From NCBI GenBank assembly GCA_016789645.1, contig JAEUQP010000341.1, positions 1-35,501 of the forward strand: a stretch of 35,501 bases of DNA, given 5' to 3'. The notes below the pieces were generated by a model. That model searched no databases. It was not told where the DNA came from and was given only the letters and a program-made list of their open reading frames with translations. A program made the translations under genes and the position numbers. This stretch comes from Acidobacteriota bacterium. Lineage in GTDB: Bacteria; Acidobacteriota; Blastocatellia; RBC074. Of the stretch, positions 3,204 through 17,302 are shown in pieces. Each line of letters begins with the position of its first letter. Positions within the stretch are counted from its first letter, which is position 1.

Positions 3204-6200
3204 GTGTCTATTGTTCTCAAAGTTCGCCGTTTCGTTTTCGTGATCCTTGCCGGACTAGCGCTTATACCCTTTGCAGTCCCAGTGCTGTATGCGGAACGGT
3301 TACCGGTCAAGCTTTACACCACTGCCGACGGCTTGCCGAGCACGCAGATCAAACGCATTGTGCGCGATTCGCATGGCTTCCTCTGGTTTTGCACGCGCAA
3401 TGGCCTGAGCCGTTTCGACGGCGCCGAATTCGTCAATTACAACATCATAGACGGCTTGCCAGATCCGACGATTAACGATCTGCTCGAAAGCCGTAGCGGC
3501 GTTTATTGGGTGGCGACCAATGGAGGCGGCGTGAGCCGCTTTGACCCTCGTGTTTCGACCGCTACGCAGTCCGCTTTACGCTTCAAGCATTACGCAGTCG
3601 GCATTCATATAGCCAGCAACCGCGTCAATCGTCTCTGCGAAGATTTGCTAGGACGCATCTGGGCGGCAACGGATCGCGGTATTTTCCGGCTCGAAGCAAA
3701 GCACGATGCGTCGTTTCAGCAGGTGGATTTGCCGGTCACCCCGCGTGCTCCCGGGGAAGAATCTGCCAATGCGATCATGGCTGACCGCAGTGGCACAGTC
3801 TGGGTAGGGTTTTCCTCCGCCGGACTTTTTCGTGTATGGCCTGACGGGCGGATTGAGCAGTTCGCGCAACGGGCAAAATTGCCGATTACACCCATTAACT
3901 CATTACTTGAAGATCGCACTGGCCGCATTTGGGTTGGAACTTGGGGGCACGGCCTGTTTCGCATAGAGGACGGAACAGGTTCGAATCAACCGCTGGCTGC
4001 ACAGCAATTCACGACAAAGGATGCCTTGCCAGCAGACAGCGTTCACTCAATGTACCAGTTTCCCGACGGGCGTTTGTGGGCGTTTACAGAAATGGGAATC
4101 GCTGAGTTTGATGGGAACGCTTTCAAACCACTTGATCAAATCAATCGTCTGATCGGGGGAGTCGTGGAAATGGCCATGGAAGATCGAGACGGCAATCTTT
4201 GGCTAAGCAGCCTACACCTAGGTGTCACGAAACTGATCCGTCAGGGATTCACGACCTGGGATCAAAATGATGCGCCCGGACTTAGGTTTCCTTATCCTTT
4301 ATACACGGACGCCAATGGTGAAATCATTGCCAATGGCATGAAGAATTGGACGATCAATCAATTTGACGGACAACGTTTCACGACCGTTCGTCCGCTCTTG
4401 CCGCCCGATCCTGGAAACCTGTGGCTGAATACCGGCGCGTACCGTGACCGCTTCGGCGAATGGTGGGTAACGAGTCGAACGGGGCTGTACCGTTTTCCTC
4501 AAGTCCGCCGGCTGGCTGATCTGGCGCATACGTCGCCGAAAGCCGTCTATCGCCTTGGCTCTGGTCTGTCCCACGATATTGTCTACCGTGTTTACGAAGA
4601 TGTGCGCGGTGATCTCTGGGTCGGCGGACTTAACGAAAACGCAAACAACCTGACTCGTTGGGAGCGCGCCAGTGAAACGTTTCATCCTGTCAAAATTCCG
4701 CCGGAGATTTCGGATCCGCAAGTGCCCAGTGTTTTTCTGGAAGACCGCGCCGGAAACCTCTGGATCGCCTTTCAAGACGGCGGCTTGGTGCGTTACCGCG
4801 ATGGCCGTTTCATCGTAATGCAACAGGCAGATGGTTGGCCTCACTCACAAATAATGTCCGGCTACCTAGATCAGTCAGGCCGCCTGTGGCTTGTTGGCGG
4901 GGCGGCAGGCTTGATGCGGATTGACGACCCAGCGGCGGAATCCCCCCGCCCGACACGCATTTACACGATGGCCGATGGGCTGAGCAGTGGCAACGTGCGT
5001 GCTGTGACGGGAGATCAATGGGGACGCATTTACATTGGCACGGCAGCCGGAATTGACCGGCTGGATTTGGCCTATAACAGTGTGCGCCATTACACCGCCG
5101 CCGATGGACTATCCAATGAGTTTGTCGTTTCCGCCCAACGCGACCGGAACGGGCATTTATGGTTCGGCACGATTGAGGGTTTGTCGCGGCTGGTTCCGGA
5201 ACCCGATGTCCCTTCCGTTCCGCCGCCGGTGAAAATCGGTGCATTGCACGTCGCCGGCGTACCTTACGGTGTTTCTGAAATTGGAGAGGAGGCGGTTGGC
5301 ACTCTGAAACTCGATGCCGCCCAAAACAACGTCCAGATTGACTATTTTGGCGTTTCTTTCGCGTTTGGCGAGCGTCTGCGTTTTCAATACAAATTGGAAA
5401 ACGCAGACCGCGAATGGAGCGCGCCGACAGAACAGCGCAGCGTTAACTACGCCAATCTGGCTCCGGGGTCATATCGCTTTCTGGTGCGCGCCATCAACGC
5501 GGACGGGGTCGTCAGCGCGCAGCCAGCAACAGTCGCTTTTATGATCTTGCCTCCCCTGTGGCGGCGGTGGTGGTTCATGGTGTTGATAGTTTTAAGCGTC
5601 GGGGCGGCGATTTATGCGCTGTATCGTTATCGCGTCTCGCATCTATTGGCACTTGAACGTGTGCGGATGCGCATAGCCCACGACTTGCACGACGACATCG
5701 GCTCGAACCTCTCGCGCATCGCCATGCTCAGCGAAGTCGCGCGCCAACACCTGGGCGGAGACGATTCCGAAGTAACCGACCGCCTCACGCGCGTAGCCGC
5801 TATCTCGCGCGAATCGGTTGATGCCTTGGGCGACATAGTCTGGGCGATCAACCCCGCACGCGACCGCCTGAGCGATCTGACGCAGCGCATGCGGCGCGTG
5901 GCAGATGATTTTTGCTCCGCGCGCGACATCGCATTCGATATCCATACCGCCATTGCCGACCACAACGCGCGGCTCGACAGCGACACCCGCCGCGAAGTGC
6001 TGCTCATTTTCAAAGAATGCCTGAACAACATAGCGCGTCATTCCGGCTGCACAGCGGTCAACGCCGAATTCCGCCAGCAGGACGGCTGGCTAGTTTTGCA
6101 AATCGGCGACAACGGTAAAGGCATTGAGCCGTCTCGACAGAACAATGGCCACGGCCTCAACAGTATGCAGCAGCGCGCCGTGCGGCTGGGCGGAGAGTTG

Positions 6201-6278
6201 GCCATTACTTCGGACAACAGCATCGGCACAACCCTGCGGCTGACGGTTCCGCTCAGCCGCCGAAAACGCAGGTTTTGA
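3204..6278 (+). CDS. sensor histidine kinase with extracytoplasmic beta-propeller and Y_Y_Y region, HisKA_3 type
   Basis: GTG start preceded by AGGAGG (3193-3198). N-terminal hydrophobic segment. Many propeller-blade repeats (G.LW(V/I)(G/A)T..G(L/V).R(F/L)). Y_Y_Y-like segment (RFQYKLE...REWS...NYANLAPGSYRFLVRA). TM helix WWFMVLIVLSVGAAIYALY. H-box RIAHDLHDDIGSNLS. HATPase N and G boxes (ECLNNIARHS, DNGKGI, GHGLNSM). Confidence 0.9.
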   Translation: MSIVLKVRRFVFVILAGLALIPFAVPVLYAERLPVKLYTTADGLPSTQIKRIVRDSHGFLWFCTRNGLSRFDGAEFVNYNIIDGLPDPTINDLLESRSGVYWVATNGGGVSRFDPRVSTATQSALRFKHYAVGIHIASNRVNRLCEDLLGRIWAATDRGIFRLEAKHDASFQQVDLPVTPRAPGEESANAIMADRSGTVWVGFSSAGLFRVWPDGRIEQFAQRAKLPITPINSLLEDRTGRIWVGTWGHGLFRIEDGTGSNQPLAAQQFTTKDALPADSVHSMYQFPDGRLWAFTEMGIAEFDGNAFKPLDQINRLIGGVVEMAMEDRDGNLWLSSLHLGVTKLIRQGFTTWDQNDAPGLRFPYPLYTDANGEIIANGMKNWTINQFDGQRFTTVRPLLPPDPGNLWLNTGAYRDRFGEWWVTSRTGLYRFPQVRRLADLAHTSPKAVYRLGSGLSHDIVYRVYEDVRGDLWVGGLNENANNLTRWERASETFHPVKIPPEISDPQVPSVFLEDRAGNLWIAFQDGGLVRYRDGRFIVMQQADGWPHSQIMSGYLDQSGRLWLVGGAAGLMRIDDPAAESPRPTRIYTMADGLSSGNVRAVTGDQWGRIYIGTAAGIDRLDLAYNSVRHYTAADGLSNEFVVSAQRDRNGHLWFGTIEGLSRLVPEPDVPSVPPPVKIGALHVAGVPYGVSEIGEEAVGTLKLDAAQNNVQIDYFGVSFAFGERLRFQYKLENADREWSAPTEQRSVNYANLAPGSYRFLVRAINADGVVSAQPATVAFMILPPLWRRWWFMVLIVLSVGAAIYALYRYRVSHLLALERVRMRIAHDLHDDIGSNLSRIAMLSEVARQHLGGDDSEVTDRLTRVAAISRESVDALGDIVWAINPARDRLSDLTQRMRRVADDFCSARDIAFDIHTAIADHNARLDSDTRREVLLIFKECLNNIARHSGCTAVNAEFRQQDGWLVLQIGDNGKGIEPSRQNNGHGLNSMQQRAVRLGGELAITSDNSIGTTLRLTVPLSRRKRRF

Positions 6279-6428
6279 CCCTGGCCTTTACTTTGTTTGG
6301 AAACGAAACCTACACACCCACGTAGTGTCTGGTGTTCGCGTTCGCGGTAATCTGTGGTCAAGTTCCCTGCGGAAACCGCCCACGATTAGTTGCAAATACG
6401 ATTCGCACCCATAAACGGCGAAGGAAAT

Positions 6429-7106
6429 ATGTCCGGTAACACTGCTCCAGCAAGCCCCCCACCATCTACCCCAATCAAGGTCGTAGTGGTCGAAGACATC
6501 CTAGATATCCGCGAGAGCCTGCGCATTATGATCAACGGCACAGAAGGTTTCCGCTGCATGGGCGCTTACTACTCCGCCGAAGAAGCGATGGAAAAGATCG
6601 GCAAGGAAGTCCCTGACGTAGTGCTGATGGACATCGGCCTGCCGAAGATGTCGGGCATCGAAGCCACGCGCCAGTTGAAAGCTCATTACCCAAAGCTTTT
6701 GATCCTGATGCTGACGGTCTACGACGACGACGAGCGTATCTTCAATTCGCTCTGCGCCGGAGCCTGCGGATACTTGCTGAAGAAGACGCCTCCCGCGCGC
6801 CTTCTTGAAGGTATCCAGGAAGCAGCAAACGGCGGCTCACCAATGACGCCCGAAATCGCCCGCCGCGTCGTCGAACTGTTCCAGCAATTTCACCCGCCAG
6901 TCCAGGCCGATTACCAACTTTCAGCACACGAAGTGCGTTTATTGAAAATGCTCGCCGAGGGACACAGTTACCGCTCCGCCGCGACCGTTTTGGGCGTTAC
7001 ACCGCATGCGGTGTCTTTTCACTTGCGAAATATCTACGAGAAGCTCCACGTTCATTCCAAATCTGAAGCGGTTGCAAAAGCGTTGCGAGATCATCTCATC
7101 GAATAA
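6429..7106 (+). CDS. NarL/LuxR-family response regulator
   Basis: ATG at 6429 after GAAGGA. Receiver domain (VVVVEDI..., VVLMDIGLPKMSG, LTVYDD). C-terminal LuxR HTH (LSAHEVRLLKMLAEGHSYRSAATVLGVTPHAVSFHLRNIYEKLHV). Directly downstream of the kinase. Confidence 0.9.
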   Translation: MSGNTAPASPPPSTPIKVVVVEDILDIRESLRIMINGTEGFRCMGAYYSAEEAMEKIGKEVPDVVLMDIGLPKMSGIEATRQLKAHYPKLLILMLTVYDDDERIFNSLCAGACGYLLKKTPPARLLEGIQEAANGGSPMTPEIARRVVELFQQFHPPVQADYQLSAHEVRLLKMLAEGHSYRSAATVLGVTPHAVSFHLRNIYEKLHVHSKSEAVAKALRDHLIE

Positions 7107-7358: not shown

Positions 7359-9953
7359 ATGGATCGCATTTCTTATGTCAAAGGATTGCTCAATCAACGT
7401 GCGCGAGGCAAAAAAAACACCGCGGCCCAACAGATCGAGGCGCTAAAAAGTCTGCCACGGCGACCTTCTTATGGTGTGCCACCTCAATGGGATGACGGGC
7501 AAGATCATGAAGTGCAGTTGATAACGCTCCGGCCGGAACATCGACGGTTACTGGGTGTAACGGAGGAATTTAAGGAGCCGGTCGGCCAGCTACCCGTGCT
7601 TCGTGTTCCCGATCCCAACCGGCCACCGACGGGAAAATCAGGATTAAGGTTAGCGACGAATGCCTTTGGTTCGGACCTGTTGGAAGGCTTGGCTTCCATT
7701 GCTGCCCAAGTCTCTGACGCTACCGCCGTTGCACCACAACCAAAGCTGCGCATCCGCGTGCAGGCAATAGTTTGCCGTAACGACGATGGCAAATTTTCCA
7801 ATGGTGGTCTGGGGCAGAGCCAGAAGGAACTGGCTTCGGCATTGACGAAGACGTTTGCCCACGTCAACAAAATCTATGAAGGGACCGGGATCGAACTGGT
7901 TTTTTACCCCTCCGCCGATCTCGAAATTCGAAACGATACCCGGCTTAACCAGGACTTCATCGTGCCGGAGTCCGACCGCGCCAAGCTGACGAAAAATCCA
8001 CCGCTTACTGTGGAAGAGATAAATAAACTGATCGAAGAAAAATGGACGATGCATGAACATCGCACCGCAATTGCCAAACAGTATCCTGGCAAAATGGTAT
8101 TACTCTTCGCCGAGGGAACAACTGTTTTCCTGGGCGTACCACCGACGCAAGATGGCTGGCGCTGGTGTAATAAATGTCAAGGGATGTTCTTTTCGGGTGC
8201 GGGCGCCGGCAAATGCCCTGCTGGCAGCGGGCATGACGCTAACGGTAGCGGCAACTACATGCTGACGTTTATGCATGACGAAACTGCGCAACAAACTCAG
8301 GATAACTGGCGATATTGTAAAAAGTGCCAGGGGCTGTATTTTGCCGGAAATAATGCTGGAGTTTGTCCGGCTGGCGCGGCACACGACGGCACGGATAGCG
8401 GCAATTATGTGCTCGGCGTTTCCTCAACTTCCATACCAAATTCTCAGAACAACTGGCGCTGGTGTAAGAAGTGTCAAGGGCTATTCTTCGCTGATAACAA
8501 CGCCGGGAAGTGCCCGGTTAGTAACACTCATGATGCCAGCGGGAGTGGTAATTACAGGCTACTGCTAGCCCACGAACAGGCGCTGCGTTGGGTTATTAGC
8601 TCTCCATCCGGCGGAGGCTTCTCTTCGCATGACATGGAGTTTGCCAAACTCTCCGAATGGGTTCCTGATTCGGACGCGGGGGCAGCCTCATACGCGACCT
8701 TAGTTGCCCACGAAACGGGCCATTTCCTGCACTTATGGCATACGTTCTATCAAATCGGTCTCACCGACCAAGAAAACGGCGATACTAAACTAACCAATGC
8801 TGGCAAGGCTGATATTTTGAGAAAGAGAATTGCCGCAGTTCTGGAGGGGGAGCAAAAGAAGGGCGTGCCAGCCAACAAACTTGTTGACATTCTGGATGCG
8901 GACGCCCAGGTCATTTCCGACACTCCTCCTGATGATGGTGGCGAATACCTATACTATACCAACCTCGTGAATAACACTGGAGACTCATGTGGAACGATTG
9001 GTACCGTTAAATTGACTTTGACCGATGGCACATCAGTCAGCTACACGCCGGATCGTAGCCTGGTGATGAGCTATTTCAAGGGGTGTGTCAACTTCAAACA
9101 GCACTTCTCGCCCAAACAGGCTGAACGCATGCGCAATGCGCTGATCAATGGCAATCGGCGCAGGCTGGTTGGCGTGCAGCTTGGTGACACATCCTATCCC
9201 GGAGAGTACGTGTGCGCTGCGTGGAATCCGAATTCGCAACCGCAGTTCTACACCTGGAATAACACGTTCGAAGAATTCAAGAAGCAGGAAAAGCAAAAAC
9301 GTGCTGAGGGAATGCGACTGCGGTCTCAACAAGCGTATACCGTCAATGGTCAAACGAAATATGACGGCATCTGGAATCCCGGGACGCATGAGCAAACTGT
9401 TATCTGGGGCTGGGCGGTCAATGATTTCAAAGCAAGGGATGCTGAGTTGAAGGGCAAGGGGCTGCGGTTGCGGCATTTCGAGTCTTACTTGCTACCGGAC
9501 GGACAAGTGCGCATAAACGCCATCTGGAATCCCGGCATGCAGTTGCAGGAATGGGTTCAGGGGTGGGCACCCGCTGATTTCATTACTAAGGCAAATGGCA
9601 TGCACCAGAAGGGGTTTCGTCTTGTTCATCTGAACTCCTGGAATATGGCGGACGGACAGTTACGCTTTGATGCTATTTGGGAGCCAGGCACCCAAGCTCA
9701 ATGGGTGCAATTCGACCTGACTGCTGATGCATTCCAGAAGAAATATGGTGAGATGTGGGCACAGGATTTCAAACTGCTATTGCTGGATGCTTACCGCGTA
9801 GGGAATGAGATTCGATTCAACGGTGTCTGGAACCCAGATGCTGGTCCACAGTACGTGGTCTGGAACAAGACCCGTGAACAAGTAAGAGCCGATTATGACG
9901 AGATGTGGCAGCAGGGGATGAAACTCACATCAATGAGTGCAGTCCGTTTGTAA
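7359..9953 (+). CDS. M43 (pappalysin/ulilysin-like) metzincin with an inserted triple Cys/His repeat and C-terminal WNPG tandem repeats
   Basis: ATG after AAAGGAGAG. Zinc motif HETGHFLHLWHTF at aa 451-463 (nt 8709-8747) fits HExxHxxGxxH-TF of M43 except that Gly is replaced by His. ISDTP (aa 519-523) and a Met-turn-like LVMSY (aa 568-572) lie downstream. Three 49-50-aa Cys repeats occupy aa 267-402. The C-terminal 4-5 repeats are of the G(I/V)WNPG type. No N-terminal signal peptide is visible. Confidence 0.75.
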   Translation: MDRISYVKGLLNQRARGKKNTAAQQIEALKSLPRRPSYGVPPQWDDGQDHEVQLITLRPEHRRLLGVTEEFKEPVGQLPVLRVPDPNRPPTGKSGLRLATNAFGSDLLEGLASIAAQVSDATAVAPQPKLRIRVQAIVCRNDDGKFSNGGLGQSQKELASALTKTFAHVNKIYEGTGIELVFYPSADLEIRNDTRLNQDFIVPESDRAKLTKNPPLTVEEINKLIEEKWTMHEHRTAIAKQYPGKMVLLFAEGTTVFLGVPPTQDGWRWCNKCQGMFFSGAGAGKCPAGSGHDANGSGNYMLTFMHDETAQQTQDNWRYCKKCQGLYFAGNNAGVCPAGAAHDGTDSGNYVLGVSSTSIPNSQNNWRWCKKCQGLFFADNNAGKCPVSNTHDASGSGNYRLLLAHEQALRWVISSPSGGGFSSHDMEFAKLSEWVPDSDAGAASYATLVAHETGHFLHLWHTFYQIGLTDQENGDTKLTNAGKADILRKRIAAVLEGEQKKGVPANKLVDILDADAQVISDTPPDDGGEYLYYTNLVNNTGDSCGTIGTVKLTLTDGTSVSYTPDRSLVMSYFKGCVNFKQHFSPKQAERMRNALINGNRRRLVGVQLGDTSYPGEYVCAAWNPNSQPQFYTWNNTFEEFKKQEKQKRAEGMRLRSQQAYTVNGQTKYDGIWNPGTHEQTVIWGWAVNDFKARDAELKGKGLRLRHFESYLLPDGQVRINAIWNPGMQLQEWVQGWAPADFITKANGMHQKGFRLVHLNSWNMADGQLRFDAIWEPGTQAQWVQFDLTADAFQKKYGEMWAQDFKLLLLDAYRVGNEIRFNGVWNPDAGPQYVVWNKTREQVRADYDEMWQQGMKLTSMSAVRL
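8157..8564 (+). repeat. three tandem 49-50-aa Cys/His repeats (coding) inside the metzincin gene
   Basis: WRWCNKCQGMFFSGAGAGKCPAGSGHDANGSGNYML / WRYCKKCQGLYFAGNNAGVCPAGAAHDGTDSGNYVL / WRWCKKCQGLFFADNNAGKCPVSNTHDASGSGNYRL. The spacing C-x2-C-x12-C-x5-H is invariant. Confidence 0.85.
9210..9950 (+). repeat. C-terminal ~50-aa tandem repeats of the WNPG type (BTRD1 / polyglycine-hydrolase N-domain-like), coding
   Basis: Recurrent units of the form ...(K/Q)G(L/F/M)RL...Y...G(Q).(R/K)(I/F/Y)(N/D)(A/G)IWNPG...(Q).V.GW...F. Instances are AAWNPN, DGIWNPG, NAIWNPG, DAIWEPG and NGVWNPD. Confidence 0.6.
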
Positions 9954-10036: not shown

Positions 10037-10207
10037 ATGGCAGAGACTCTAACTGTTTCGGTATTGCGACTGGATGATCTGCTCGTGCTGAAGTTTGAGT
10101 TCATCAACTTGGTGCGCAAAGAGATCGTTGACCCGCAACTGGGAAGATCAAAGAAGAAACACTATGCCGGATCAAAATCAGCTAAAAATTGGCAAGATAT
10201 TTCTTGA
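10037..10207 (+). CDS. 56-aa ORF with a strong Shine-Dalgarno, overlapping the start of the next gene; either a real small gene or the displaced N-terminus of the downstream gene
   Basis: AAGGAGG at 10021-10027, then a 9-nt spacer and ATG at 10037. Product MAETLTVSVLRLDDLLVLKFEFINLVRKEIVDPQLGRSKKKHYAGSKSAKNWQDIS*. It overlaps ATG 10164 of the repeat protein in a different frame. It falls below the ORF-track length cutoff. Confidence 0.35.
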   Translation: MAETLTVSVLRLDDLLVLKFEFINLVRKEIVDPQLGRSKKKHYAGSKSAKNWQDIS

Positions 10208-11468
10208 TGGCAAAAATGGAAGCATAACGTCAGGGGCTTTGGGTGGATCAGGTGTGCTTAAGCTCCTTGATAGTGCCGCCAGTGAATCGGTACTCATATC
10301 CGCTGAATCGCCGACGGCTATGGCTCAGCCGATAGCGGTAAAGGGGATAATTAAATTAGGGCAAGGGCAATATGAAGCGGAGGGCAGTAATAAAGGCGGA
10401 GGAAAGGTTACTCTCAAAAACTCCGCGTTAAAAAGTACCGTTAGCCTCGACGGCGAGAATGGCAGGGCACGTCTGGGCGATAGCGGCGTAGACGGCGCGG
10501 TGTCGGTGATCGGAGCTAACGGCGCTCCCGCTGTCGAATTGCTTGCCTTGCCAAAAGAATCTGTGATTGGAGCAGGCACTGCGAATCGTCCGGGGCGGTT
10601 GACGCTGTATAACGGCAACGGCCAGCAAACCGTCAACATCACAACGGCTGATGCCAAATTTTCACTTGGCGGTGGCGGTGTCGCCGGATCAATTTCGGTG
10701 TTTTGGGCTGATGGCAAGCCGTCAGTCGAGTTACTGGCTCGGATCAATGAATCAGTCATTGCCGCAGGGCAGGTCAATCGTCCGGGCCGGTTGACAATGT
10801 ATAACGGCAGCGGCCAACAAACCGTCAATCTCTCCACGACTGACGCCAAGTTCTCTCTCGGCGGTGGCGGCGTGAATGGCTCTTTGTCGGTCCTAGCGGC
10901 TGATGGCTCGCCGTTGATTGAGTTGCTTGGTAAAAAGGATGAATGCGTGATTGGACTTGGCCAATCAAATCGTCCAGGGCGAATCTCCATTTATAACGGC
11001 GGGCAAAACGAGGCCATTCGCCTAGACGGTGTTTCAGGCGATATTTTGCTGATGAATGCCGATTGCGCTGAGGAATTCGATGTCTCTGAATCTGACGTAG
11101 AGGTTGAACCCGGAACCGTGATGGTGCTCGATGAAAACGGTGCGCTCCGCCCAAGCTCGTCAGCATTCGATAGACGAGTGGCCGGCGTCGTTTCAGGGGC
11201 TGGCAAATATAAACCAGGAATTGTGCTCGACCGCCAAGTTTCAACCAAACCGCGTTTGCCGATAGCTCTGGTTGGCAAAGTCTATTGCAACGTAGACGCT
11301 TCATTCGGAGCAGTTCGAGTTGGAGATTTGCTAACAACCTCGGATACCTTAGGCCATGCAATGCGCGCCGACGACCCGCTTAAGGCTTTCGGCGCTGTCC
11401 TTGGGAAAGCTCTCCGTCCTCTGGCTTCCGGACAGGAGATGATCCCTATTCTGGTTGCACTTCAATAG
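10164..11468 (+). CDS. repeat protein (64-aa beta-rich repeats) with a conserved uncharacterised C-terminal module
   Basis: The ORF is open from 10095 (TTG). The first ATG at 10164 gives MPDQNQLKIGKIFLDG... Repeats are NRPGRLT(L/M)YNG.GQQTVN..T.DAKFSLGGGGV.GS.SV...DG.P..ELL. The C-terminal 143 aa start at GDILLMNADCAEEFDV and contain EPGTVMVLDE, VAGVVSGAG.YKPGIVLD, PIALVGKVYC.VDA, VGDLLTTS..GHAM and ends IPILVALQ. The start codon is uncertain and no signal peptide is visible. Confidence 0.75.
   Translation: MPDQNQLKIGKIFLDGKNGSITSGALGGSGVLKLLDSAASESVLISAESPTAMAQPIAVKGIIKLGQGQYEAEGSNKGGGKVTLKNSALKSTVSLDGENGRARLGDSGVDGAVSVIGANGAPAVELLALPKESVIGAGTANRPGRLTLYNGNGQQTVNITTADAKFSLGGGGVAGSISVFWADGKPSVELLARINESVIAAGQVNRPGRLTMYNGSGQQTVNLSTTDAKFSLGGGGVNGSLSVLAADGSPLIELLGKKDECVIGLGQSNRPGRISIYNGGQNEAIRLDGVSGDILLMNADCAEEFDVSESDVEVEPGTVMVLDENGALRPSSSAFDRRVAGVVSGAGKYKPGIVLDRQVSTKPRLPIALVGKVYCNVDASFGAVRVGDLLTTSDTLGHAMRADDPLKAFGAVLGKALRPLASGQEMIPILVALQ
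10392..11036 (+). repeat. about 3.3 tandem copies of a 192-nt (64-aa) coding repeat
   Basis: The anchor AATCGTCC(G/A)GG recurs at 10584, 10776 and 10968, an exact 192-nt period. An earlier, more diverged copy starts near 10392. Confidence 0.8.
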
Positions 11469-11522
11469 ATTCGGCAATTTCAAAATAACATCAACAACTG
11501 TCTAAGTAACAAGAGGAAAACC

Positions 11523-12023
11523 ATGCCAATCTCGGTGAAGAAAAATCTTCTGGCATCTGAAACAGGCTGTTGGCTTTCGCCATATTTCATTGTCAGCAAA
11601 GAGGAGCTAAAGGAAAAATCTGTATTCTACCAAGTTACTCAGGTCTCTGTTTATAATCCTAATGCTACTAAGGTTGATGTCAGAGTAACTTTTCATTATG
11701 AGCAATCGAGCAGGTTTGAATTCTCGTTAAAAATCTTTGGTGGGTTGGCGGCGACTAAAGTAGTTGGCTACCGTAATTGTATGAGCAACATGGATTTTGC
11801 GATATTTCCAGAAACGGAGCCGTGCCAGGTTGGCCGGATAGCTGTTTACAGCCCATTGCCAATATATGCGTGCGGCCAAATCAATATGTTTCAGGAGGGG
11901 CGTTCTAATACCCCACAACCTTATTTTTTCGACCATAGAAGCTATCCGCTAACCTTTCATCCCAATTTCACCGCAGACCCTAATTTTGATTTGCATCAAC
12001 TTACAATTGTACCAGGTGCCTGA
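11523..12023 (+). CDS. hypothetical protein (166 aa), low-GC orphan
   Basis: ATG after AGAGGAAAA. No signal peptide or TM helix. Hand counts of two 60-nt lines gave 33% and 40% GC, against roughly 55-60% in neighbouring genes. Possible distant resemblance to the ASRT-type beta-sandwich family, which is very tentative. Confidence 0.6.
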   Translation: MPISVKKNLLASETGCWLSPYFIVSKEELKEKSVFYQVTQVSVYNPNATKVDVRVTFHYEQSSRFEFSLKIFGGLAATKVVGYRNCMSNMDFAIFPETEPCQVGRIAVYSPLPIYACGQINMFQEGRSNTPQPYFFDHRSYPLTFHPNFTADPNFDLHQLTIVPGA

Positions 12024-12161
12024 CGACACTTATTCCATCTCAGTTTGAATATTGCAATCTGGATAATTTCAATGGCAAGCATCTTTGATTTTCCTTGCCC
12101 TCGTTGATACTGGCTGAAAAACGCTTCAGGTGCCATAAATTCTTGCCTGTAGAGGAAGGAT

Positions 12162-15080
12162 ATGAAGTCCATCACGACTTTGCTTTTAGTTTGTTGCGGT
12201 ACCCTGATCGCTTTTGGCCAGCAACTTACATTACAAGGCACGCTAACGACTGACGCACAATCGCCCGTTCCCGCCACCCGCATTAGCGTTCACGGGATTA
12301 CCAATACAACTGATCAGAAAGGGCAGTACAAGCTTGTCCTGGGCGGCAGTTTCCGCGAGGGTGAGCGAGTGATTATCGCCGTCGAAAAGATCGGCTGGGT
12401 GATCAATTCTCCGCTCGATGGTGAATGGAACCTACCGAACATTCGACTGCAGAATGTCCAAACATTGAAAATCATCCTTGTTCCTAAAGGCTCCAAATCG
12501 CTCTGGTCGCATGCTCGTATCGAGAAACATATCGCCAAGCTGTCTGATGAAATTGCGCGGTTGAAAGAAGATGACGATCAACCGCGCCCGGTTGATTTCA
12601 GCTTCTACCTGCGTGAATGGGCGGAGCAGTACGGCTTTACGCCGGAACAGGTCAAAGCAGCATTTGACGAATGGGCGAAGGCGGTCGAAAAGTCAGACGA
12701 TTATCGTGCGCTTGGGTTGCGCGCTTTCTACCAAAAGAACTTTCCACTCGCGGCGGAAAATTTCGTGAAGGCCGCGCAAAAAGATGAGGGCCAGATCAAG
12801 TCAGTCCAGGAGCAACTTGATAGAAACATTCTTGATGCATACAAGAATCGTAAAGACGCCGGCAGTTCGTTCAAGAACTCGTATCAGTATAAAGAGGCCT
12901 TAGAGCAATACGCCTTTGCCAAGCTTCATCTCGCGGGACTCACCTCGAAGGATAAATATTGGTATGAGCAGGCCCAGATAGAGTTGATGATTGGCAATGC
13001 GACGCGCGATATGGGAAAGGGCATTGACGGGGAAGAAGGAACTCGCTTACTCGCCAAGGCGATGGATTCGTACCAGCGTGCTTTTGTAGGTTTTACCCGT
13101 CAGCGATCGTTGAGAAATTGGGCGCTGACACAGAGGAACTTTGGAGATGCGTTGAAATCGTTAGGCGCGAGGATGGAGGACAACCAAAGCGCAAAGCTAT
13201 TCGCCGAAGCCATCGCTGCCTACCACAACGCTTTGCACGTATACATCCGGGAAAGATTCCCGGAAGACTGGGCGCTGACGCATGGTCGTCTGGGCGATGC
13301 ATTGCGATCGCAGAGCGCAATAATTGAGGATGCTCAAAGCGCAAAGCTGTTGGGTGAAGCTGTTGCGGCATACCAGAGTGCCTTGCTCGTCTATACTCGA
13401 GACAGATCGCAAAATGACTGGGCGTTTACGCAGAACTTATTGGGCCAAGCGTTAAAGTCTCTGAGCGAGAAAACAGAAGGATCTCCAAGCGTGAATCTGT
13501 TAGTCGAGGCTGTAACTGCCCACCGCAACGCCTTGCAGGTTTACACTCGTGAATACCTGCCGGTGGCCTGGGCGCTGACGCAGAACGATCTGGGCAATGC
13601 GTTGGAAGCACAAAGCGCCGCAGTGGAAGACGCTCAAAGCAGAAAGCTGCTGGCGGAGGCTGTCGCCGCTCACCGTCTCGCCTTGCAGGTTGAAACCCGC
13701 GAACGGTCGCCGAAAAGCTGGGCGATAATACAGAGAGGCCTGGGCAGCGCACTTTTAGCGCAAGGTCAGACGATAGCAGGTGAGGAAGGTGCGAACTTGT
13801 TGGCCGAAGCCGTGGTTGCCTATTGCAATGCCCTGCAGGTCAGAACCAGGGAGCAGTCCCCCCGACAATGGGCAGCGGCGCAGAACAGTTTGGGCAATGC
13901 ACTTTTGGCGCAAGGTCAGCGCGGGGCGTCCGCTGAAAGACTGAGGCTGCTAGCCGAAGCCGTAGCTGCCTACCACAACGCTTTGCAGGTCAGAACGCGC
14001 GAGCAATGGCCGCGACAATGGGCTGAGACGCAGGACAAGTTGTGTATTGCATTCTGGTCACAAGGTACCCGGATAGCAGGAACTGAAGGTGCGAAATTAC
14101 TGGCCGAAGCTGCGACGGCTTGTCGCAATGCCCTAGAGGTCAGAACCCGTGAGCAGTCACCGCAGAACTGGGCGGAGACGCAAAGCCATTTGGGAATCGC
14201 ATTATCCTCACAAGGAGTGCGGATAGCTGGCTCTGAAGGTGTGAGGTTACTGGTTGAAGCCGCCGCTGCCTACCGTAACGCATTGCTGGTTATAACCCGT
14301 GATAAATTGCCGCAGCGATGGGCAGAGACTCAGCACAATCTGGGCAGTGCATTGTGGAGGCAAGCTATATTTATGAAAGGTAATGATAGGGAGAGGCTGT
14401 TTGCCGAAGCCGTCATTGCTTACCGCAATGCCTTGCTGGTCCGAACTCCCGACCATTTGCCGGAGAAATGGGCGGAAACACAATACGGGCTTGGCGAAAC
14501 CTACTACTTCTCGGCTAGATGGAGTGACGCTGCGGAATGTTTTGCTAGTCTGTTGGCGCGGCGTCAGACCAATGAAATAGCTACTTTTTCTTATTCACGC
14601 CTGAGTGATATTTACCACGAGAGATTGTTTGAGTACGAATTGGCTTTCAAGCTGCATCAAAAGCGGCTGGCTGATTTCCCTGATAATCTGAATGCATTGG
14701 TTAATTTCGCGGAGACGCATTTTACCACGGGCAGATTTGCCGAATGTGAGCGACGGATCGCGGCGTTGCTTGCCAATCACCAAATCGCGGCGAGCACCTC
14801 ATTAGCCTTGCGTATGATAGACATTGCCAATTCGCTGGCGATGAACCAAGCCGATCAGGTTCCACCCAAACTTGAAGCGATAATTCGAGCCATTACTGAT
14901 CAGCCGGAAAACTTCAAATTTACCTGGACTTTCAATGGCACGCTGCATTTCATGGGGGAGAATGAAAAGTTGGCTGCCTACCGCGATTGGCTGAAGTTGT
15001 TGTTCAGTGCCGCGGAGGGTAAGAACCGCGATGCTGTCCTTAAGGTTTTGCGGGAAGCAAAGGCTGGATTCAAGTGGTAG
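12162..15080 (+). CDS. secreted protein: signal peptide, carboxypeptidase-regulatory-like beta-sandwich, helical linker, ten 50-aa TPR-like repeats, C-terminal helical domain
   Basis: ATG after GAGGAAGG. Signal peptide MKSITTLLLVCCGTLIAFG/QQ. The segment LQGTLTTDAQSPVPATRISVHGITNTTDQKGQYKL fits the CarboxypepD_reg pattern. Repeats follow LLAEAVAAYRNALQVRTREQ.P..WA.TQ.NLG.AL. No Walker or NTPase motif was seen. Confidence 0.85.
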   Translation: MKSITTLLLVCCGTLIAFGQQLTLQGTLTTDAQSPVPATRISVHGITNTTDQKGQYKLVLGGSFREGERVIIAVEKIGWVINSPLDGEWNLPNIRLQNVQTLKIILVPKGSKSLWSHARIEKHIAKLSDEIARLKEDDDQPRPVDFSFYLREWAEQYGFTPEQVKAAFDEWAKAVEKSDDYRALGLRAFYQKNFPLAAENFVKAAQKDEGQIKSVQEQLDRNILDAYKNRKDAGSSFKNSYQYKEALEQYAFAKLHLAGLTSKDKYWYEQAQIELMIGNATRDMGKGIDGEEGTRLLAKAMDSYQRAFVGFTRQRSLRNWALTQRNFGDALKSLGARMEDNQSAKLFAEAIAAYHNALHVYIRERFPEDWALTHGRLGDALRSQSAIIEDAQSAKLLGEAVAAYQSALLVYTRDRSQNDWAFTQNLLGQALKSLSEKTEGSPSVNLLVEAVTAHRNALQVYTREYLPVAWALTQNDLGNALEAQSAAVEDAQSRKLLAEAVAAHRLALQVETRERSPKSWAIIQRGLGSALLAQGQTIAGEEGANLLAEAVVAYCNALQVRTREQSPRQWAAAQNSLGNALLAQGQRGASAERLRLLAEAVAAYHNALQVRTREQWPRQWAETQDKLCIAFWSQGTRIAGTEGAKLLAEAATACRNALEVRTREQSPQNWAETQSHLGIALSSQGVRIAGSEGVRLLVEAAAAYRNALLVITRDKLPQRWAETQHNLGSALWRQAIFMKGNDRERLFAEAVIAYRNALLVRTPDHLPEKWAETQYGLGETYYFSARWSDAAECFASLLARRQTNEIATFSYSRLSDIYHERLFEYELAFKLHQKRLADFPDNLNALVNFAETHFTTGRFAECERRIAALLANHQIAASTSLALRMIDIANSLAMNQADQVPPKLEAIIRAITDQPENFKFTWTFNGTLHFMGENEKLAAYRDWLKLLFSAAEGKNRDAVLKVLREAKAGFKW
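13047..14546 (+). repeat. ten tandem 150-nt (50-aa) coding repeats, TPR-like helical hairpins
   Basis: Units begin LLAKAMDSY, LFAEAIAAY, LLGEAVAAY, LLVEAVTAH, LLAEAVAAH, LLAEAVVAY, LLAEAVAAY, LLAEAATAC, LLVEAAAAY and LFAEAVIAY, with an exact 50-aa period. The central units are also highly similar at the DNA level. Confidence 0.85.
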
Positions 15081-15098
15081 CAAGCGGAAGCTCAGGCG

Positions 15099-16031
15099 AT
15101 GCCCAAAGTTTTTATTAGCTATAACCGAGCCGATTTGAAGCACGCGCTGGCGTTGGAGCAGGCAATGCAGTCGCATGCCGTAAGCGTGTGGCGCGACCAG
15201 CATAGCCTGTATGGCGGGCAGCAGTGGCCGAAAACCATCGGCGAAGCGCTGGCTGATTGTGACGCGGTGTTGCTGCTTTGGTCGGCGAATGCCACCGCCG
15301 GACATTACGTTGAATTCGAGTGGAACACGGCGCTGGCTTTGAAGAAAAAGATCATTCCTTTGCTGCTCGACGACGCGACGCTGCCACCTGCGCTTACAGC
15401 CATCAATGCGATTCCTCACCGTGATCCGGATGAAACTGTAGCTCAAATTTTGATGGCTCTGCCGATTCAGCCGCAGATGCAAGAGACGGAACGGCGCGAA
15501 CGTGTCATCAAACAGCTTCAGTGCATTACAGCTTCTGAACCTGCCGAAGCATTGGCGCAGGCCAAGGCGCTTTTCTCACAAAGCAATATCAATGTCGGTG
15601 GTCATTTGATTCAGGGCGGCGACGTAAACGTAACGCTCGGCGAAAGTCGTCAGTTATTTCCAACGGTTGTCGCTGCATTAGTCGTCATCGTCATCGTCGT
15701 AGTGGCATCGTTTTACTTCACCTCAAGCAGCCGCCGCGCGCTGTCCCAAGCTGCGGCTTCGCCGACTGTCGAAGAGATGACTTACCTGCGCGGTCAGGTG
15801 GAAAATGCCGAAGGAAAGCCCCTAGACGGGGCAACCGTGAGGGTGGATGACATCGGCAAGCAGCCGTTGGAGACTACGACGACGAGCAGCGGTGGCTTCA
15901 TTATTGAAAATATTCCCGCCCGCATCGGCGATCGCGTTCGCGTCTACATCAGCAAGGAAGGGCATGAGACTCAAAATCAGTACGTTGCGCTGCCCGGCCC
16001 GCTGCCGACAGTCAGGTTGAAAAGAAAGTGA
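15099..16031 (+). CDS. TIR-domain protein: N-terminal TIR_2-type domain, single TM helix, C-terminal carboxypeptidase-regulatory-like beta-sandwich
   Basis: Starts 18 nt after the TPR gene. TIR motifs are KVFISYNRAD, VWRD...L.GG..W...I.EAL..CDAVLLLWS and S.NA...HYVEFEW..ALALKKKIIPLLLDD. The TM helix is LFPTVVAALVVIVIVVVASFYF (aa 186-207, about nt 15654-15719). The C-terminal YLRGQVENAEGKPLDGATVRVDD...GGFIIENIP.RIGDRVRVYISKEGH is beta-sandwich-like. The gene ends in a double stop, TGATGA. Confidence 0.85.
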   Translation: MPKVFISYNRADLKHALALEQAMQSHAVSVWRDQHSLYGGQQWPKTIGEALADCDAVLLLWSANATAGHYVEFEWNTALALKKKIIPLLLDDATLPPALTAINAIPHRDPDETVAQILMALPIQPQMQETERRERVIKQLQCITASEPAEALAQAKALFSQSNINVGGHLIQGGDVNVTLGESRQLFPTVVAALVVIVIVVVASFYFTSSSRRALSQAAASPTVEEMTYLRGQVENAEGKPLDGATVRVDDIGKQPLETTTTSSGGFIIENIPARIGDRVRVYISKEGHETQNQYVALPGPLPTVRLKRK

Positions 16032-16038
16032 TGAAAGC

Positions 16039-16414
16039 CGTTTGGCCCGTCAACCGCTGACGCCTGCGCGATTGCTCGACACCGGAGCGGTGCGTCCGGC
16101 ACCTGCTTCCTGCCGAATGCGCTGCTGACCGGCGACGTGGAATACAAGCCGCGCAAGGCGTCTGCACCATCGCCAATACGGCGCAAGCGATTGTCGGCAA
16201 TGCGACGACGGTCTGCCAGCAGCGGAACGGCTTCTTGACCTTCTGGCCGAGCAATGCTGTGACGAGGCCGCTGGCAGCGACCTCAAACTTCCAAGCAGGC
16301 AGAAACTTTAATCGCTATTACACGGCAGGATTGGGAACAGGCGGCGCTTTCAAGATGTACGCTTCACAAACCATCAATCTAGTTGTAGACGTTTCCGGGT
16401 ATTTCGCGCCGTGA
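16039..16414 (+). pseudogene. frameshifted remnant of a gene encoding an RLLDT...DVSGYFAP-type beta-rich domain
   Basis: Frame 1 reads ...QPLTPARLLDTGAVRPAPAS and stops at 16126. Frame 2 reads ...QGVCTIANTAQAIVGNATTVCQQRNGFLTFWPSNAVTRPLAATSNFQAGRNFNRYYTAGLGTGGAFKMYASQTINLVVDVSGYFAP* (stop 16412-16414) but has no start codon near its 5' end. The pieces together resemble a single about 110-aa domain. Confidence 0.5.
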
Positions 16415-16477
16415 GTAGGCTGATTTCTGACGTTAGCCGCAACCACACGGTGCTGGAGGCTCTGAAAGGGAAGCGGC

Positions 16478-17302
16478 TTATTGCTTTACAGATTCGGTAG
16501 GGACAGCATTTGGAGAAAGGGTTTCTTTGTAGATAAGTACAGGCATTCCGACAGGCGTCGTTTTATAAAACTCTTTCGCCGCAAACATGGGGATTCGCAC
16601 GCAGCCGTGGCTGGCAGGTTTGGTTGGAACAGATTTTGAGCCGTGAATTGCCGTGCCGTACATAAAATAAACCGGGTAATACATCTCGCCGAGCGCGCTT
16701 TTTTTCCAGCCAGGGATTTTCTGGCGAACCTGATATCTGCCCGGATGGGTGATGGCGTCGCGCGCCCAGCCTTCAGAAACGAATTCTTTACCGTTGCCGG
16801 TCGAAACGGGCAATACGCGGGTGACGGTTCCCGTGTCATCCACCACAAACAGCACTTGGCGAACCAGGTCAACTTCGATATGAGCCGCGCCGGTTTCAGT
16901 TGGCGTGGGACGATCAGCGGTCATCAGCGTGTCGAAGGTTGCGCGCGTCAGTTGCCCCGACGGTTTCAACCGCTCGACTTTTTGAAAGGCAATCAGCGCA
17001 TTTCTGGAAGCCTCATCCCAACTGCCGTCAATTTTTCCAGTCCAATAGCCCAAATCCCTCAAACGCTGCTCAGCTTGACGATGGTCTTTAGCGGTTAGCG
17101 GCTTCGCTTTTTGCGGCTGCTTGGGGGAGGTGGTTGAACGTGATTTTTCAGGAGCAATTCTGGGGCGAGTGGACTGAGCGTCAACCTGTGTGACGAAACT
17201 GGCAAACAGGCAAACGATCAGTGTCGGGATCAGAAAACCGCGGGGGCGAAGTCGGCGTGAAAAAGCATTCGTCAAAATCGCTTGGTACAACATAGTTTCC
17301 AA
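16478..17302 (-). CDS. L,D-transpeptidase (YkuD) with a peptidoglycan-binding domain
   Basis: N-terminal hydrophobic signal or anchor. PG_binding_1-like LRDLGYWTGKIDGSWDEASRNALIAFQK. YkuD catalytic region AIHGS...PASHGCVRIP. Confidence 0.85.
   Translation of the reverse strand: METMLYQAILTNAFSRRLRPRGFLIPTLIVCLFASFVTQVDAQSTRPRIAPEKSRSTTSPKQPQKAKPLTAKDHRQAEQRLRDLGYWTGKIDGSWDEASRNALIAFQKVERLKPSGQLTRATFDTLMTADRPTPTETGAAHIEVDLVRQVLFVVDDTGTVTRVLPVSTGNGKEFVSEGWARDAITHPGRYQVRQKIPGWKKSALGEMYYPVYFMYGTAIHGSKSVPTKPASHGCVRIPMFAAKEFYKTTPVGMPVLIYKETLSPNAVPTESVKQ

Follow-up and report, generated by a model that had tools for sequence, protein, structure and literature searches.

A conserved bacterial gene pair encoding a predicted transmembrane TIR protein and an exported TPR-repeat partner resembles a split Toll-like receptor

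Results

A conserved pair of adjacent genes

The 35,501-nucleotide stretch at positions 1 to 35,501 of contig JAEUQP010000341.1 of an Acidobacteriota bacterium (assembly GCA_016789645.1), hereafter the window, carries on its forward strand two adjacent genes, one for a TIR domain joined through a linker and a single predicted transmembrane (TM) helix to a transthyretin-like (TTR) β-sandwich, and the other for a secreted protein with a TTR-like domain of its own, a helical region and TPR-like repeats. The 972-residue product of the latter is the obligate partner of the TIR gene: a partner of the same kind adjoins the TIR-TM-TTR gene on the same strand wherever the flank suffices (about 30 informative loci in at least eight phyla), and also in 11 of 11 contexts retrieved by protein identity. 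Our confidence in the architecture and in the gene pairing is high, and the full mechanistic statement, that of a two-gene envelope-spanning TIR system with docking through TTR domains and ligand-triggered cleavage of NAD+, is offered as somewhat better than an even chance.

The TIR protein is far beyond chance, since a word-indexed search returned 85 homologues of the same architecture and an exhaustive search with the TIR profile returned 432 representatives at 50% identity (E ≤ 1e-30). Conservation was counted over 37 homologues that are 35–75% identical to the window protein. Genomic contexts were obtained by two routes, ten homologues being retrieved by exact protein identity and 47 loci by scanning one genome per species; the latter span Acidobacteriota, Bacteroidota, Calditrichota, KSB1, Nitrospirota, Nitrospinota, Nitrosomonas, Syntrophales and others. 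Six-frame open reading frames (ORFs) of all loci were searched with hidden Markov models (HMMs) of the TIR domain plus linker, the TIR C-domain and three regions of the partner, and 128 ORFs flanking the pair in 25 loci were compared with PADLOC and Pfam. The partner was usually found downstream of the TIR gene, frequently with a 4-nt overlap of the two; the window is the sole case with the partner upstream. The HMM of the partner C-terminal region matched the window with E=3e-94 and the other loci with 1e-41 to 1e-99. Genes flanking the pair are unrelated between loci, and no third conserved gene was detected, no family occurring in more than 3 of the 25 loci. The constant pairing, the unrelated flanks and the absence of a third gene thus define a self-contained two-gene module. 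A single interrupted pair was seen, in which a 185-residue ORF with a faint match to Y1 (IS200-type) transposases lies between the TIR gene and the partner (L008 / L014, 9074-9631). At several loci from metagenome-assembled genomes (MAGs) one member of the pair, either the TIR gene or that of the partner, is broken up into at least two ORFs, for instance by a change of frame between the TIR part and the C-domain (L017, L020, L043, L044, L050), which could reflect pseudogenisation or assembly frameshifts. A scan of positions 11400-16600 for sigma-70 promoters and intrinsic terminators gave counts no better than those of shuffled sequences and did not indicate the limits of an operon.

The features of the two window genes are as follows.

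15099..16031, + strand: gene of the TIR-linker-TM-TTR protein, 310 aa, ATG start (ORF, Pfam, homologues, AlphaFold2)
15099..15458, + strand: TIR domain, residues 1-120, predicted cytoplasmic (Pfam, AlphaFold2, Foldseek, PDB profile matches)
15195..15233, + strand: BB-loop region D33-K45 (WRDQHSLYGGQQWPK), aligned to SARM1 D594...G601
15318..15320, + strand: GAG codon of E74, the predicted catalytic Glu (Y70-x-x-x-E74, at the W-x-x-x-E position)
15459..15653, + strand: helical linker (helices 130-141 and 148-161) with the motif NINVGGHLIQGGDVNVTLG (conservation, AlphaFold2)
15654..15719, + strand: single predicted TM helix, residues 186-207 (hydrophobicity, AlphaFold2, homologues)
15774..16028, + strand: CarboxypepD_reg / TTR β-sandwich, residues 226-310, predicted periplasmic
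12162..15080, + strand: gene of the partner, a secreted TTR-helical-TPR protein, 972 aa, with its stop 18 nt upstream of the TIR gene
12162..12221, + strand: Sec-type signal peptide of the partner (MKSITTLLLVCCGTLIAFG|Q), with a K-containing n-region, a hydrophobic core and a small -1 residue before Q
12222..12485, + strand: N-terminal TTR-like β-sandwich of the partner, residues 21-108 (AlphaFold2 model confidence about 91-94, Foldseek, hhalign)
12486..12776, + strand: conserved helical mid region of the partner, residues 109-205 (VPKGS..LW.H.RIEK ... DFSFYL.EWA..YGFT..VK..FD.WA), with invariant columns
13059..14468, + strand: array of TPR-like repeats of about 50 aa (LLAEAVAAYRNALQVRTREQSPRQWAETQN.LGNAL...), with weak TPR_12 and TPR_19 matches
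14469..15077, + strand: conserved C-terminal domain of the partner, about 200 aa, residues 770-972, TPR-like with a terminal α/β part

The TIR domain and its predicted catalytic site

Residues 4-116 of the TIR protein match Pfam family TIR_2 (PF13676) with E=3e-21 and 76.6 bits against a cut-off of 28, covering profile positions 1-120 of 122, and the ORF contains all the peptides (KVFISYNRAD, CDAVLLLWSANATAGHYVEFEWNTALALKKKIIPLLLDD and NINVGGHLIQGGDVNVTLG) quoted in a preceding reading of the DNA letters, here called the sequence-only reading, which had described a complete TIR_2 core. In the AlphaFold2 model, built from the alignment of 37 homologues (mean predicted local distance difference test, pLDDT, 81.9), the TIR domain reaches a pLDDT above 90, with lower values in the BB loop as expected for a loop. 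The domain has a flavodoxin-like α/β fold superposable on solved TIR domains, and Foldseek placed it nearest to the TIR domain of SARM1 (TM-score 0.70-0.76, probability 1.00) and to TIR-APAZ of SPARTA.

Alignment of the family profile (TIR residues 2-122) with SARM1 562-700 (E=2e-4) brought E74 onto E642 (WVHKE), G40 onto the BB-loop glycine G601 and D33 onto D594. Against the PDB the same profile matched the CRISPR-associated NADase Cat1 (E=1.5e-7) and the bacterial TIR 7uxr, and E74 is also aligned with the glutamate of WCWDEL in Cat1 and of WTEYEL in 7uxr. The sequence-only reading had numbered E72 and E74 correctly, codon 74 being GAG at 15318-15320, and had left the choice between them to an alignment, which now assigns the catalytic glutamate to E74 and the BB-loop glycine to G40. 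Residues W31, D33, W43, P44, K45, S62, E72, E74 and W75 are invariant in 37/37 homologues, and F5, S7, Y8, R10, G40 and H69 are conserved in at least 90% of them, so that the description of the catalytic region as apparently intact can be retained. The sequence features of an NADase-type TIR are thus present, namely the glutamate at the W-x-x-x-E position (E74), the BB-loop glycine (G40) and D33, all of them conserved and matching SARM1. The TIR protein is predicted to be, and probably is, an NAD-cleaving enzyme.

It may be asked whether the TIR domain could instead serve as a non-catalytic scaffold that recruits cytoplasmic proteins, like the animal TLR/MyD88 adaptors. Animal receptor TIR domains are mainly adaptors, and the window protein has tyrosine instead of tryptophan at the position -4 to E74 (Y70). 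Most relatives, however, carry phenylalanine at this position, E74, D33, S7/Y8/R10 and the BB-loop glycine are invariant or nearly so across phyla, and no conserved cytoplasmic partner gene was found, which leaves the scaffold explanation very improbable.

The linker that follows the TIR domain, with V136, L140, P148, A155, Q161, G168 and Q172 conserved, is present ahead of the TM helix with roughly the 60 residues originally ascribed to it. It is not a spacer, however, but a conserved helical module that STAND-type TIR proteins also have.

Orientation in the membrane

On the Kyte-Doolittle (KD) scale the 19-residue segment L186-S204 averages 2.91, against at most 1.12 elsewhere in the protein, and the hydrophobic stretch comprises 22 consecutive apolar residues. 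AlphaFold2 modelled residues 167-186 as disordered, 187-210 as a helix and 228-307 as a confident β-sandwich (pLDDT about 90-96), in agreement with the one hydrophobic helix of 20-22 residues that the sequence-only reading had placed before a folded C-terminal domain. A single TM helix was found at the same position in all TIR-TTR homologues from the 47 genome loci. The C-terminal domain can now be named: residues 230-298 match Pfam CarboxypepD_reg (PF13620; E=7.6e-10, 39.4 bits against a cut-off of 32.3), and the modelled domain is a seven-strand β-sandwich of the transthyretin-like type, for which Foldseek returned the TTR domains of carboxypeptidase D/N and teneurin and the N-terminal extension (NTE) of a SusC protein (TM-scores 0.68-0.76; 0.76 for the SusC NTE, 9hfj). 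What had been missed at that stage was the neighbouring partner gene.

The charges on the two sides of the helix, one arginine before and two after it in the window protein, had already been recognised as poor support for either orientation, and the caveat is right for the whole family: within 15 residues per side, the 37 homologues have on average 2.24 K+R on the N side and 2.11 on the C side. As these values are nearly equal, the positive-inside rule is uninformative, and orienting the helix by it was dropped. Most likely the TIR protein crosses the inner membrane once, in type II (N-in/C-out) orientation. This prediction is favoured because no signal peptide precedes its 185-residue folded N-terminal part, because NAD+ is cytoplasmic, because the C-domain shares its fold with proteins of the periplasm and the cell exterior (SusC NTE, carboxypeptidase D, teneurin), and because the domain that co-evolves with the C-domain (see below) is exported in every case. 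The N-in/C-out arrangement proposed in the sequence-only reading has thereby gained support, the fold of the C-domain and the Sec signal peptide before the co-evolving domain (27/27) being new arguments. The SusC NTE is periplasmic and, although of unknown function, is presumed to be a protein-protein interaction module (PMC7782687).

If the hydrophobic segment did not span the membrane, or if the C-domain were cytoplasmic, pairing with the neighbour would occur wholly in the cytoplasm. Such an arrangement would accord with the uninformative charges, with the merely moderate hydrophobicity of the segment in one clade (KD 1.5-1.75) and with the existence of TM-less cytoplasmic fusions. It is opposed by the KD value of 2.91 and the run of 22 apolar residues in the window protein and by the canonical cleavable signal peptide of the partner in 27/27 cases, with which a cytoplasmic C-domain could never meet its partner. 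Translocation of a folded 185-residue N-terminal domain lacking a signal peptide is, moreover, not expected of Sec/YidC insertion. A wholly cytoplasmic pairing is accordingly regarded as having only a slight chance of being correct.

The exported partner and docking through TTR domains

All 27 distinct full-length partners (27/27) begin with a Sec signal peptide that has a K/R-containing n-region, a hydrophobic core of 10-15 residues and a small -1 residue, usually before Q; in the AlphaFold2 model of the window partner this part is an N-terminal helix (residues 2-17) of low pLDDT. The N-terminal domain of the mature partner is homologous to the C-domain of the TIR protein (hhalign probability 97.7%, E=1.7e-12, 73 columns), and its top Foldseek matches are the same, i.e. 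the SusC NTE 9hfj and the TTR domains of carboxypeptidase D and teneurin.

A mirror-tree test was performed with pairwise identities of five regions in 18 non-redundant pairs. The identity matrix of the TIR C-domain correlates with that of the partner N-terminal TTR domain with r=0.918, compared with r=0.557 for the TIR C-domain and its own TIR domain plus linker. With the other three regions (TIR, partner mid and partner C-terminal) controlled, the two TTR domains retain a partial Mantel correlation of r=0.83 (p ≤ 0.0005, permutation), that between the TIR C-domain and its own TIR domain being 0.09 and not significant. Two loci illustrate this behaviour (L005 and L008): their TIR domains are 64% identical to that of the window, and both TTR domains have diverged together to 29-43%. 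The two TTR domains thus co-evolve as would be expected of interacting domains, and contact between them is suggested by these sequence correlations.

A variant pair occurs in Algoriphagus sp. D3-2-R+10 (L041, 5977-8165), where a 400-residue protein with TIR domain, linker, TM helix and two β-sandwiches overlaps by 4 nt with the next gene, whose 329-residue product has a signal peptide, a β-sandwich and a helical region and is devoid of TPRs. The docking theme therefore appears to extend to partners other than TPR proteins.

In the mid region of the partner, residues G110, S111, H117, R119, E121, D145, F146, W153, Y157, D169, W171 and R182 are invariant; this region, not the repeat array, is the most conserved part of the protein. 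Neither a Pfam match nor a PDB match by sequence search was obtained for it, and its invariant polar residues could form a candidate binding or even catalytic site. The length of the repeat region differs greatly between partners (68 to 710 aa), whereas the docking part and the C-terminal part are conserved, a pattern that would suit a sensor. In the window the array shows a tandem period of 150 nt at the DNA level (13987-14260). The C-terminal domain matched only designed consensus TPRs in the PDB, the likeness being confined to its first 90 residues.

Related architectures

An architecture census was taken of 140 new representatives from the TIR profile search. In 61 of these the order is TIR-TM-TTR, and in a further ten the segment at this position is less hydrophobic (KD 1.5-1.7); in another 34, TIR domain, linker and TM helix are followed by other external domains. 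The pair is also found as a single chain. In P0141 and P0172 the TIR-linker-TM part is joined directly to the helical, TPR and C-terminal regions of the partner, and in P0181, P0163 and the genome locus L029 the TIR domain and linker are joined to the TTR, helical and TPR regions of the partner, and both TM helix and signal peptide are absent. These single-chain fusions link the TIR module in function with the repeat protein, and from the fusions it follows that the linker is part of a conserved N-terminal module and that the sensor exists in membrane-spanning and all-cytoplasmic versions.

The same TIR domain and linker are fused in P0155, P0194, P0210, P0232 and P0184 to a NACHT-like P-loop NTPase (GEPGAGKT ... 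LLLDGLDE) with a long tail of many hydrophobic helices, and in further proteins they precede NB-ARC-like NTPases; P0155, P0194 and P0134 are carriers of the module with a P-loop NTPase. By their sequences, the NACHT-like proteins with multi-TM tails would represent a membrane-embedded TIR-STAND architecture. Nine further proteins of 1400-2300 aa are tandem multi-TIR proteins with 5-7 TIR profile matches (P0128, P0142, P0161, P0187, P0190, P0206, P0213, P0220, P0235).

Genes around the pair

In the window, the pair is surrounded by genes for a peptidase, a two-component system, an L,D-transpeptidase and a DHH phosphoesterase. Upstream, positions 3204-7106 (+) encode a 1024-aa sensor histidine kinase (Reg_prop β-propeller repeats, Y_Y_Y) followed by a 238-aa LuxR-type response regulator, apparently a two-component pair of the usual kind. 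Positions 7359-9953 (+) encode a protein of 864 aa in which the BTRD1 repeat (a polyglycine-hydrolase-like structural repeat, E=1.4e-27) occurs four times; it is followed by two ORFs lacking a Pfam match (10095-11468, 457 aa, and 11523-12023, 166 aa, both +), and they were not seen beside the pair in the other loci. Between the TIR and L,D-transpeptidase genes, positions 16058-16414 (+) hold a C-terminal remnant of another gene (frame ...GFLTFWPSNAVTRPLAATSNFQAGRNFNRYYTAGLGTGGAFKMYASQTINLVVDVSGYFAP*), with the upstream piece (..PARLLDTG..) in another frame and an intact 59-aa ORF without a Pfam match, and this appears to be a frameshifted or truncated pseudogene.

At three loci of otherwise differing context, an α/β-hydrolase gene (AXE1 / Peptidase_S9 / Abhydrolase_7) lies directly upstream of the TIR gene (L005, 6916-7947; L057, 8851-9891; L058, 3084-3887); it is absent from the window. 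In two Nitrosomonas MAGs, ORFs of 1836 aa (L030, 438-5948) and 1473 aa (L038, 458-4879) stand immediately upstream of the pair. Conflict-type neighbours occur at some loci, namely HsdR with ParE; GmrSD with T5orf172 and MazG; BrnT with SNF2; caspase, CHAT and TPR-S; and PLD-type nucleases. The caspase, CHAT and TPR-S families were each present in 2-3 of the 128 neighbour ORFs scanned.

Discussion

A possible mechanism

In the mechanism proposed here, the TIR domain and linker would face the cytoplasm, the site of NAD+, and the small TTR-like β-sandwich the periplasm. The partner would be exported through its Sec signal peptide and would carry the homologous TTR-like domain at its mature N-terminus, and binding between the paired domains would tether the repeat 'sensor' to the membrane-anchored TIR 'effector'. 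An extracytoplasmic ligand, possibly part of an attacking phage, a toxin or something released by damage to the envelope, would bind the variable repeat array and alter the oligomeric state of the repeat protein, and this alteration would cluster the cytoplasmic TIR domains across the membrane. Their self-association through the BB loop would complete the active site around E74, as in SARM1, Cat1, SPARTA and filament-forming bacterial TIRs, and the ensuing cleavage of NAD+ would arrest the growth of the attacked cell or kill it.

Several points weigh against this proposal. The topology draws no help from the positive-inside rule, and the TM-less fusions (P0181, L029) show the sensor module to be workable in the cytoplasm as well, so that the repeat protein need not be a periplasmic sensor by nature. 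The 18 pairs of the mirror-tree test are a small and phylogenetically non-independent sample, and the co-evolution of the TTR domains could stem in part from constraints of a shared compartment instead of direct contact. PADLOC-DB v2 gave no full-length match; the TIR protein was matched partially, in its TIR core, and the partner had no meaningful match. Many loci, the window included, lie among ordinary metabolic and housekeeping genes with no obvious defence island, and the TIR protein had no matches in phage and plasmid collections. Finally, one and the same catalytic glutamate serves NAD+ depletion and signalling chemistry, and the product of a TIR enzyme is not legible from its sequence.

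The last point bears on the output of the TIR domain, which might be a Thoeris-like generator of a cyclic ADP-ribose-type messenger or an ADP-ribose conjugate for an effector encoded elsewhere. Many bacterial TIRs, ThsB among them, do produce signals, and the best family matches of the window protein, weak as they are, include the ThsB and ThcB4 models. Yet these scores are far under the curated cut-offs (39 vs 220 bits), the pair has no constant neighbour with a signal-binding domain such as SLOG, Macro, SIR2 or SLATT, the commonest neighbour family occurring in 3/25 loci, and the closest solved TIRs (Cat1, SARM1, SPARTA) are NAD+-depleting effectors. A messenger-producing enzyme is thus considered unlikely. 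We favour NAD+ depletion, leading to growth arrest or death, as the probable output, in view of the missing effector gene and of the chemistry of these solved relatives.

As to physiology, the module is most likely a conflict or immunity system, in view of its patchy distribution over phyla, the unrelated insertion contexts, the variable repeat number, the STAND-type sisters and the conflict-type neighbours at some loci. A serious alternative, if a rather unlikely one, is an envelope-surveillance or social module unrelated to phage, in which a cue from the periplasm would act on NAD+ metabolism, stop growth or set off programmed death; the cue might be damage to the peptidoglycan or the outer membrane, a bacteriocin, a contact-dependent toxin, kin/self recognition or the status of TonB-dependent transport. 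The mostly metabolic and housekeeping neighbourhoods and the lack of phage or plasmid carriers are consistent with this alternative, as is the docking fold, which is that of the NTE of SusC/TonB-dependent transporters, the carrier phyla being exactly those rich in such transporters. Periplasmic TPR proteins, too, usually act in envelope biogenesis. On the other side stand the hallmarks of conflict systems, i.e. the patchy distribution and unrelated contexts, the variable repeats and the NACHT/NB-ARC sisters, together with the caspase, CHAT, TPR-S, restriction-modification or toxin genes beside some of the pairs, and the immunity role is preferred here.

TIR domains are a common currency of innate immunity in animals, plants and bacteria, and all characterised bacterial TIR systems sense and act, to our knowledge, within the cytoplasm. 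With a TIR domain inside the membrane and its sole partner outside it, conserved in many phyla, the system would be the first bacterial candidate for TIR signalling across a membrane. If this is true, phage or other attack could be detected in the periplasm, before or without entry into the cytoplasm, and the all-cytoplasmic form of the same sensor family would mirror the TLR/NLR split of animals and plants. The system raises testable questions, among them whether the TM helix acts as a switch of the TIR NADase, what the periplasmic TPR arrays target and whether the SusC-type TTR/NTE fold serves as a docking module. Genetics is feasible, since there are culturable carriers in Cyclobacterium salsum, Aquiflexum gelatinilyticum and Algoriphagus sp.

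Comparison with known systems

The sequence-only reading had held that this architecture was not functionally described, and no curated family, PADLOC model or paper covering TIR-TM-TTR was found. The literature search likewise returned no description of a TIR domain with CarboxypepD_reg, nor of a transmembrane TIR with a secreted TPR protein; 'TIR' matches in a PSP paper concern the unrelated CesT/Tir chaperone. What is known are TIR-based conflict systems, and what is new is the conserved two-gene layout, which resembles a split bacterial counterpart of a Toll-like receptor.

With SARM1, Cat1, SPARTA TIR-APAZ, TIR-SAVED, TIR-STING and AbTir-like TIRs, the window TIR shares the fold, the catalytic glutamate, the BB-loop glycine and the aspartate of the WRD/FID motif. 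SARM1-type and effector-type TIR NADases are activated by self-association, which is expected for the window TIR as well. In the former, however, the sensor is cytoplasmic, either fused or cytosol-bound, whereas the window TIR is predicted to be tethered to the membrane and to have an exported partner; as this is the only conserved partner, any signal must cross the membrane through the single helix. CBASS TIR-SAVED, the short-Argonaute TIR (SPARTA) and retron-TIR were rejected as assignments for the window protein, its PADLOC and NCBIfam matches to them being sub-threshold and limited to the TIR core.

Thoeris is similar in having a TIR protein in a small operon, and the window protein shows weak similarity to the ThsB/ThcB4 models. 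Membership was rejected, the NCBIfam ThcB4 model scoring 39 bits against a cut-off of 220, the PADLOC ThsB match (E=1.5e-6) covering the TIR core only, and an effector gene being absent. In Thoeris the TM helices are in the effectors and not in the TIR protein, and the window partner is a secreted protein without SLOG, Macro or SIR2. A survey of TIR signalling systems, with 11 Thoeris types (I-XI), likewise reports TM helices only in effectors (10.64898/2025.12.03.692087).

TIR-STAND/NLR-like and TPR conflict systems also combine an N-terminal TIR effector module with a repeat sensor, and an identical TIR domain and linker head the NACHT-like and NB-ARC-like proteins described above. The effector-associated domains (PMC7159879) are analogous to the small domain shared by both window proteins, a presumed homotypic adaptor. 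TIR-STAND systems possess an NTPase, whereas the window system has none and its adaptor would be a TTR-like β-sandwich outside the cytoplasm; membership among STAND-TIR systems was rejected, neither window protein having a P-loop domain in Pfam. The text of Kaur, Burroughs, Iyer and Aravind 2020 (PMC7159879) contains no pair of TIR-TM-TTR and signal peptide-TTR-TPR proteins. The best structural match of both TTR-like domains is the NTE (CarboxypepD_reg) of a SusC-like TonB-dependent transporter (9hfj), a domain that occurs in the same phyla. The SusC NTE belongs to a β-barrel transporter, whereas the window domains are attached to a TIR domain through a TM helix or to a TPR array, with no TonB box following. 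Periplasmic sensors of conflict systems have been proposed for lectin targets diversified by diversity-generating retroelements (DGRs), a conceptual precedent only (PMC10907252).

The Toll-like receptors are close in logic, with a solenoid outside, one TM helix, a TIR domain inside and, probably, clustering induced by a ligand. Their layout on one polypeptide is matched only by the relatives P0141 and P0172, not by the window pair; their solenoid is made of leucine-rich repeats, whereas that of the window system is TPR-like and is on a separate secreted protein that would dock through TTR-like domains. The orientation, moreover, is reversed in the window protein (TIR domain N-terminal, type II), and no homology outside the TIR domain is implied. 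Because the catalytic glutamate is kept, the window TIR is likely an enzyme rather than a TLR-style adaptor. Tentatively, the system may be viewed as a bacterial functional analogue of a Toll-like receptor, in which an extracytoplasmic repeat protein, docked or fused, would serve as a pattern sensor and would activate a cytoplasmic TIR NADase through a single helix.

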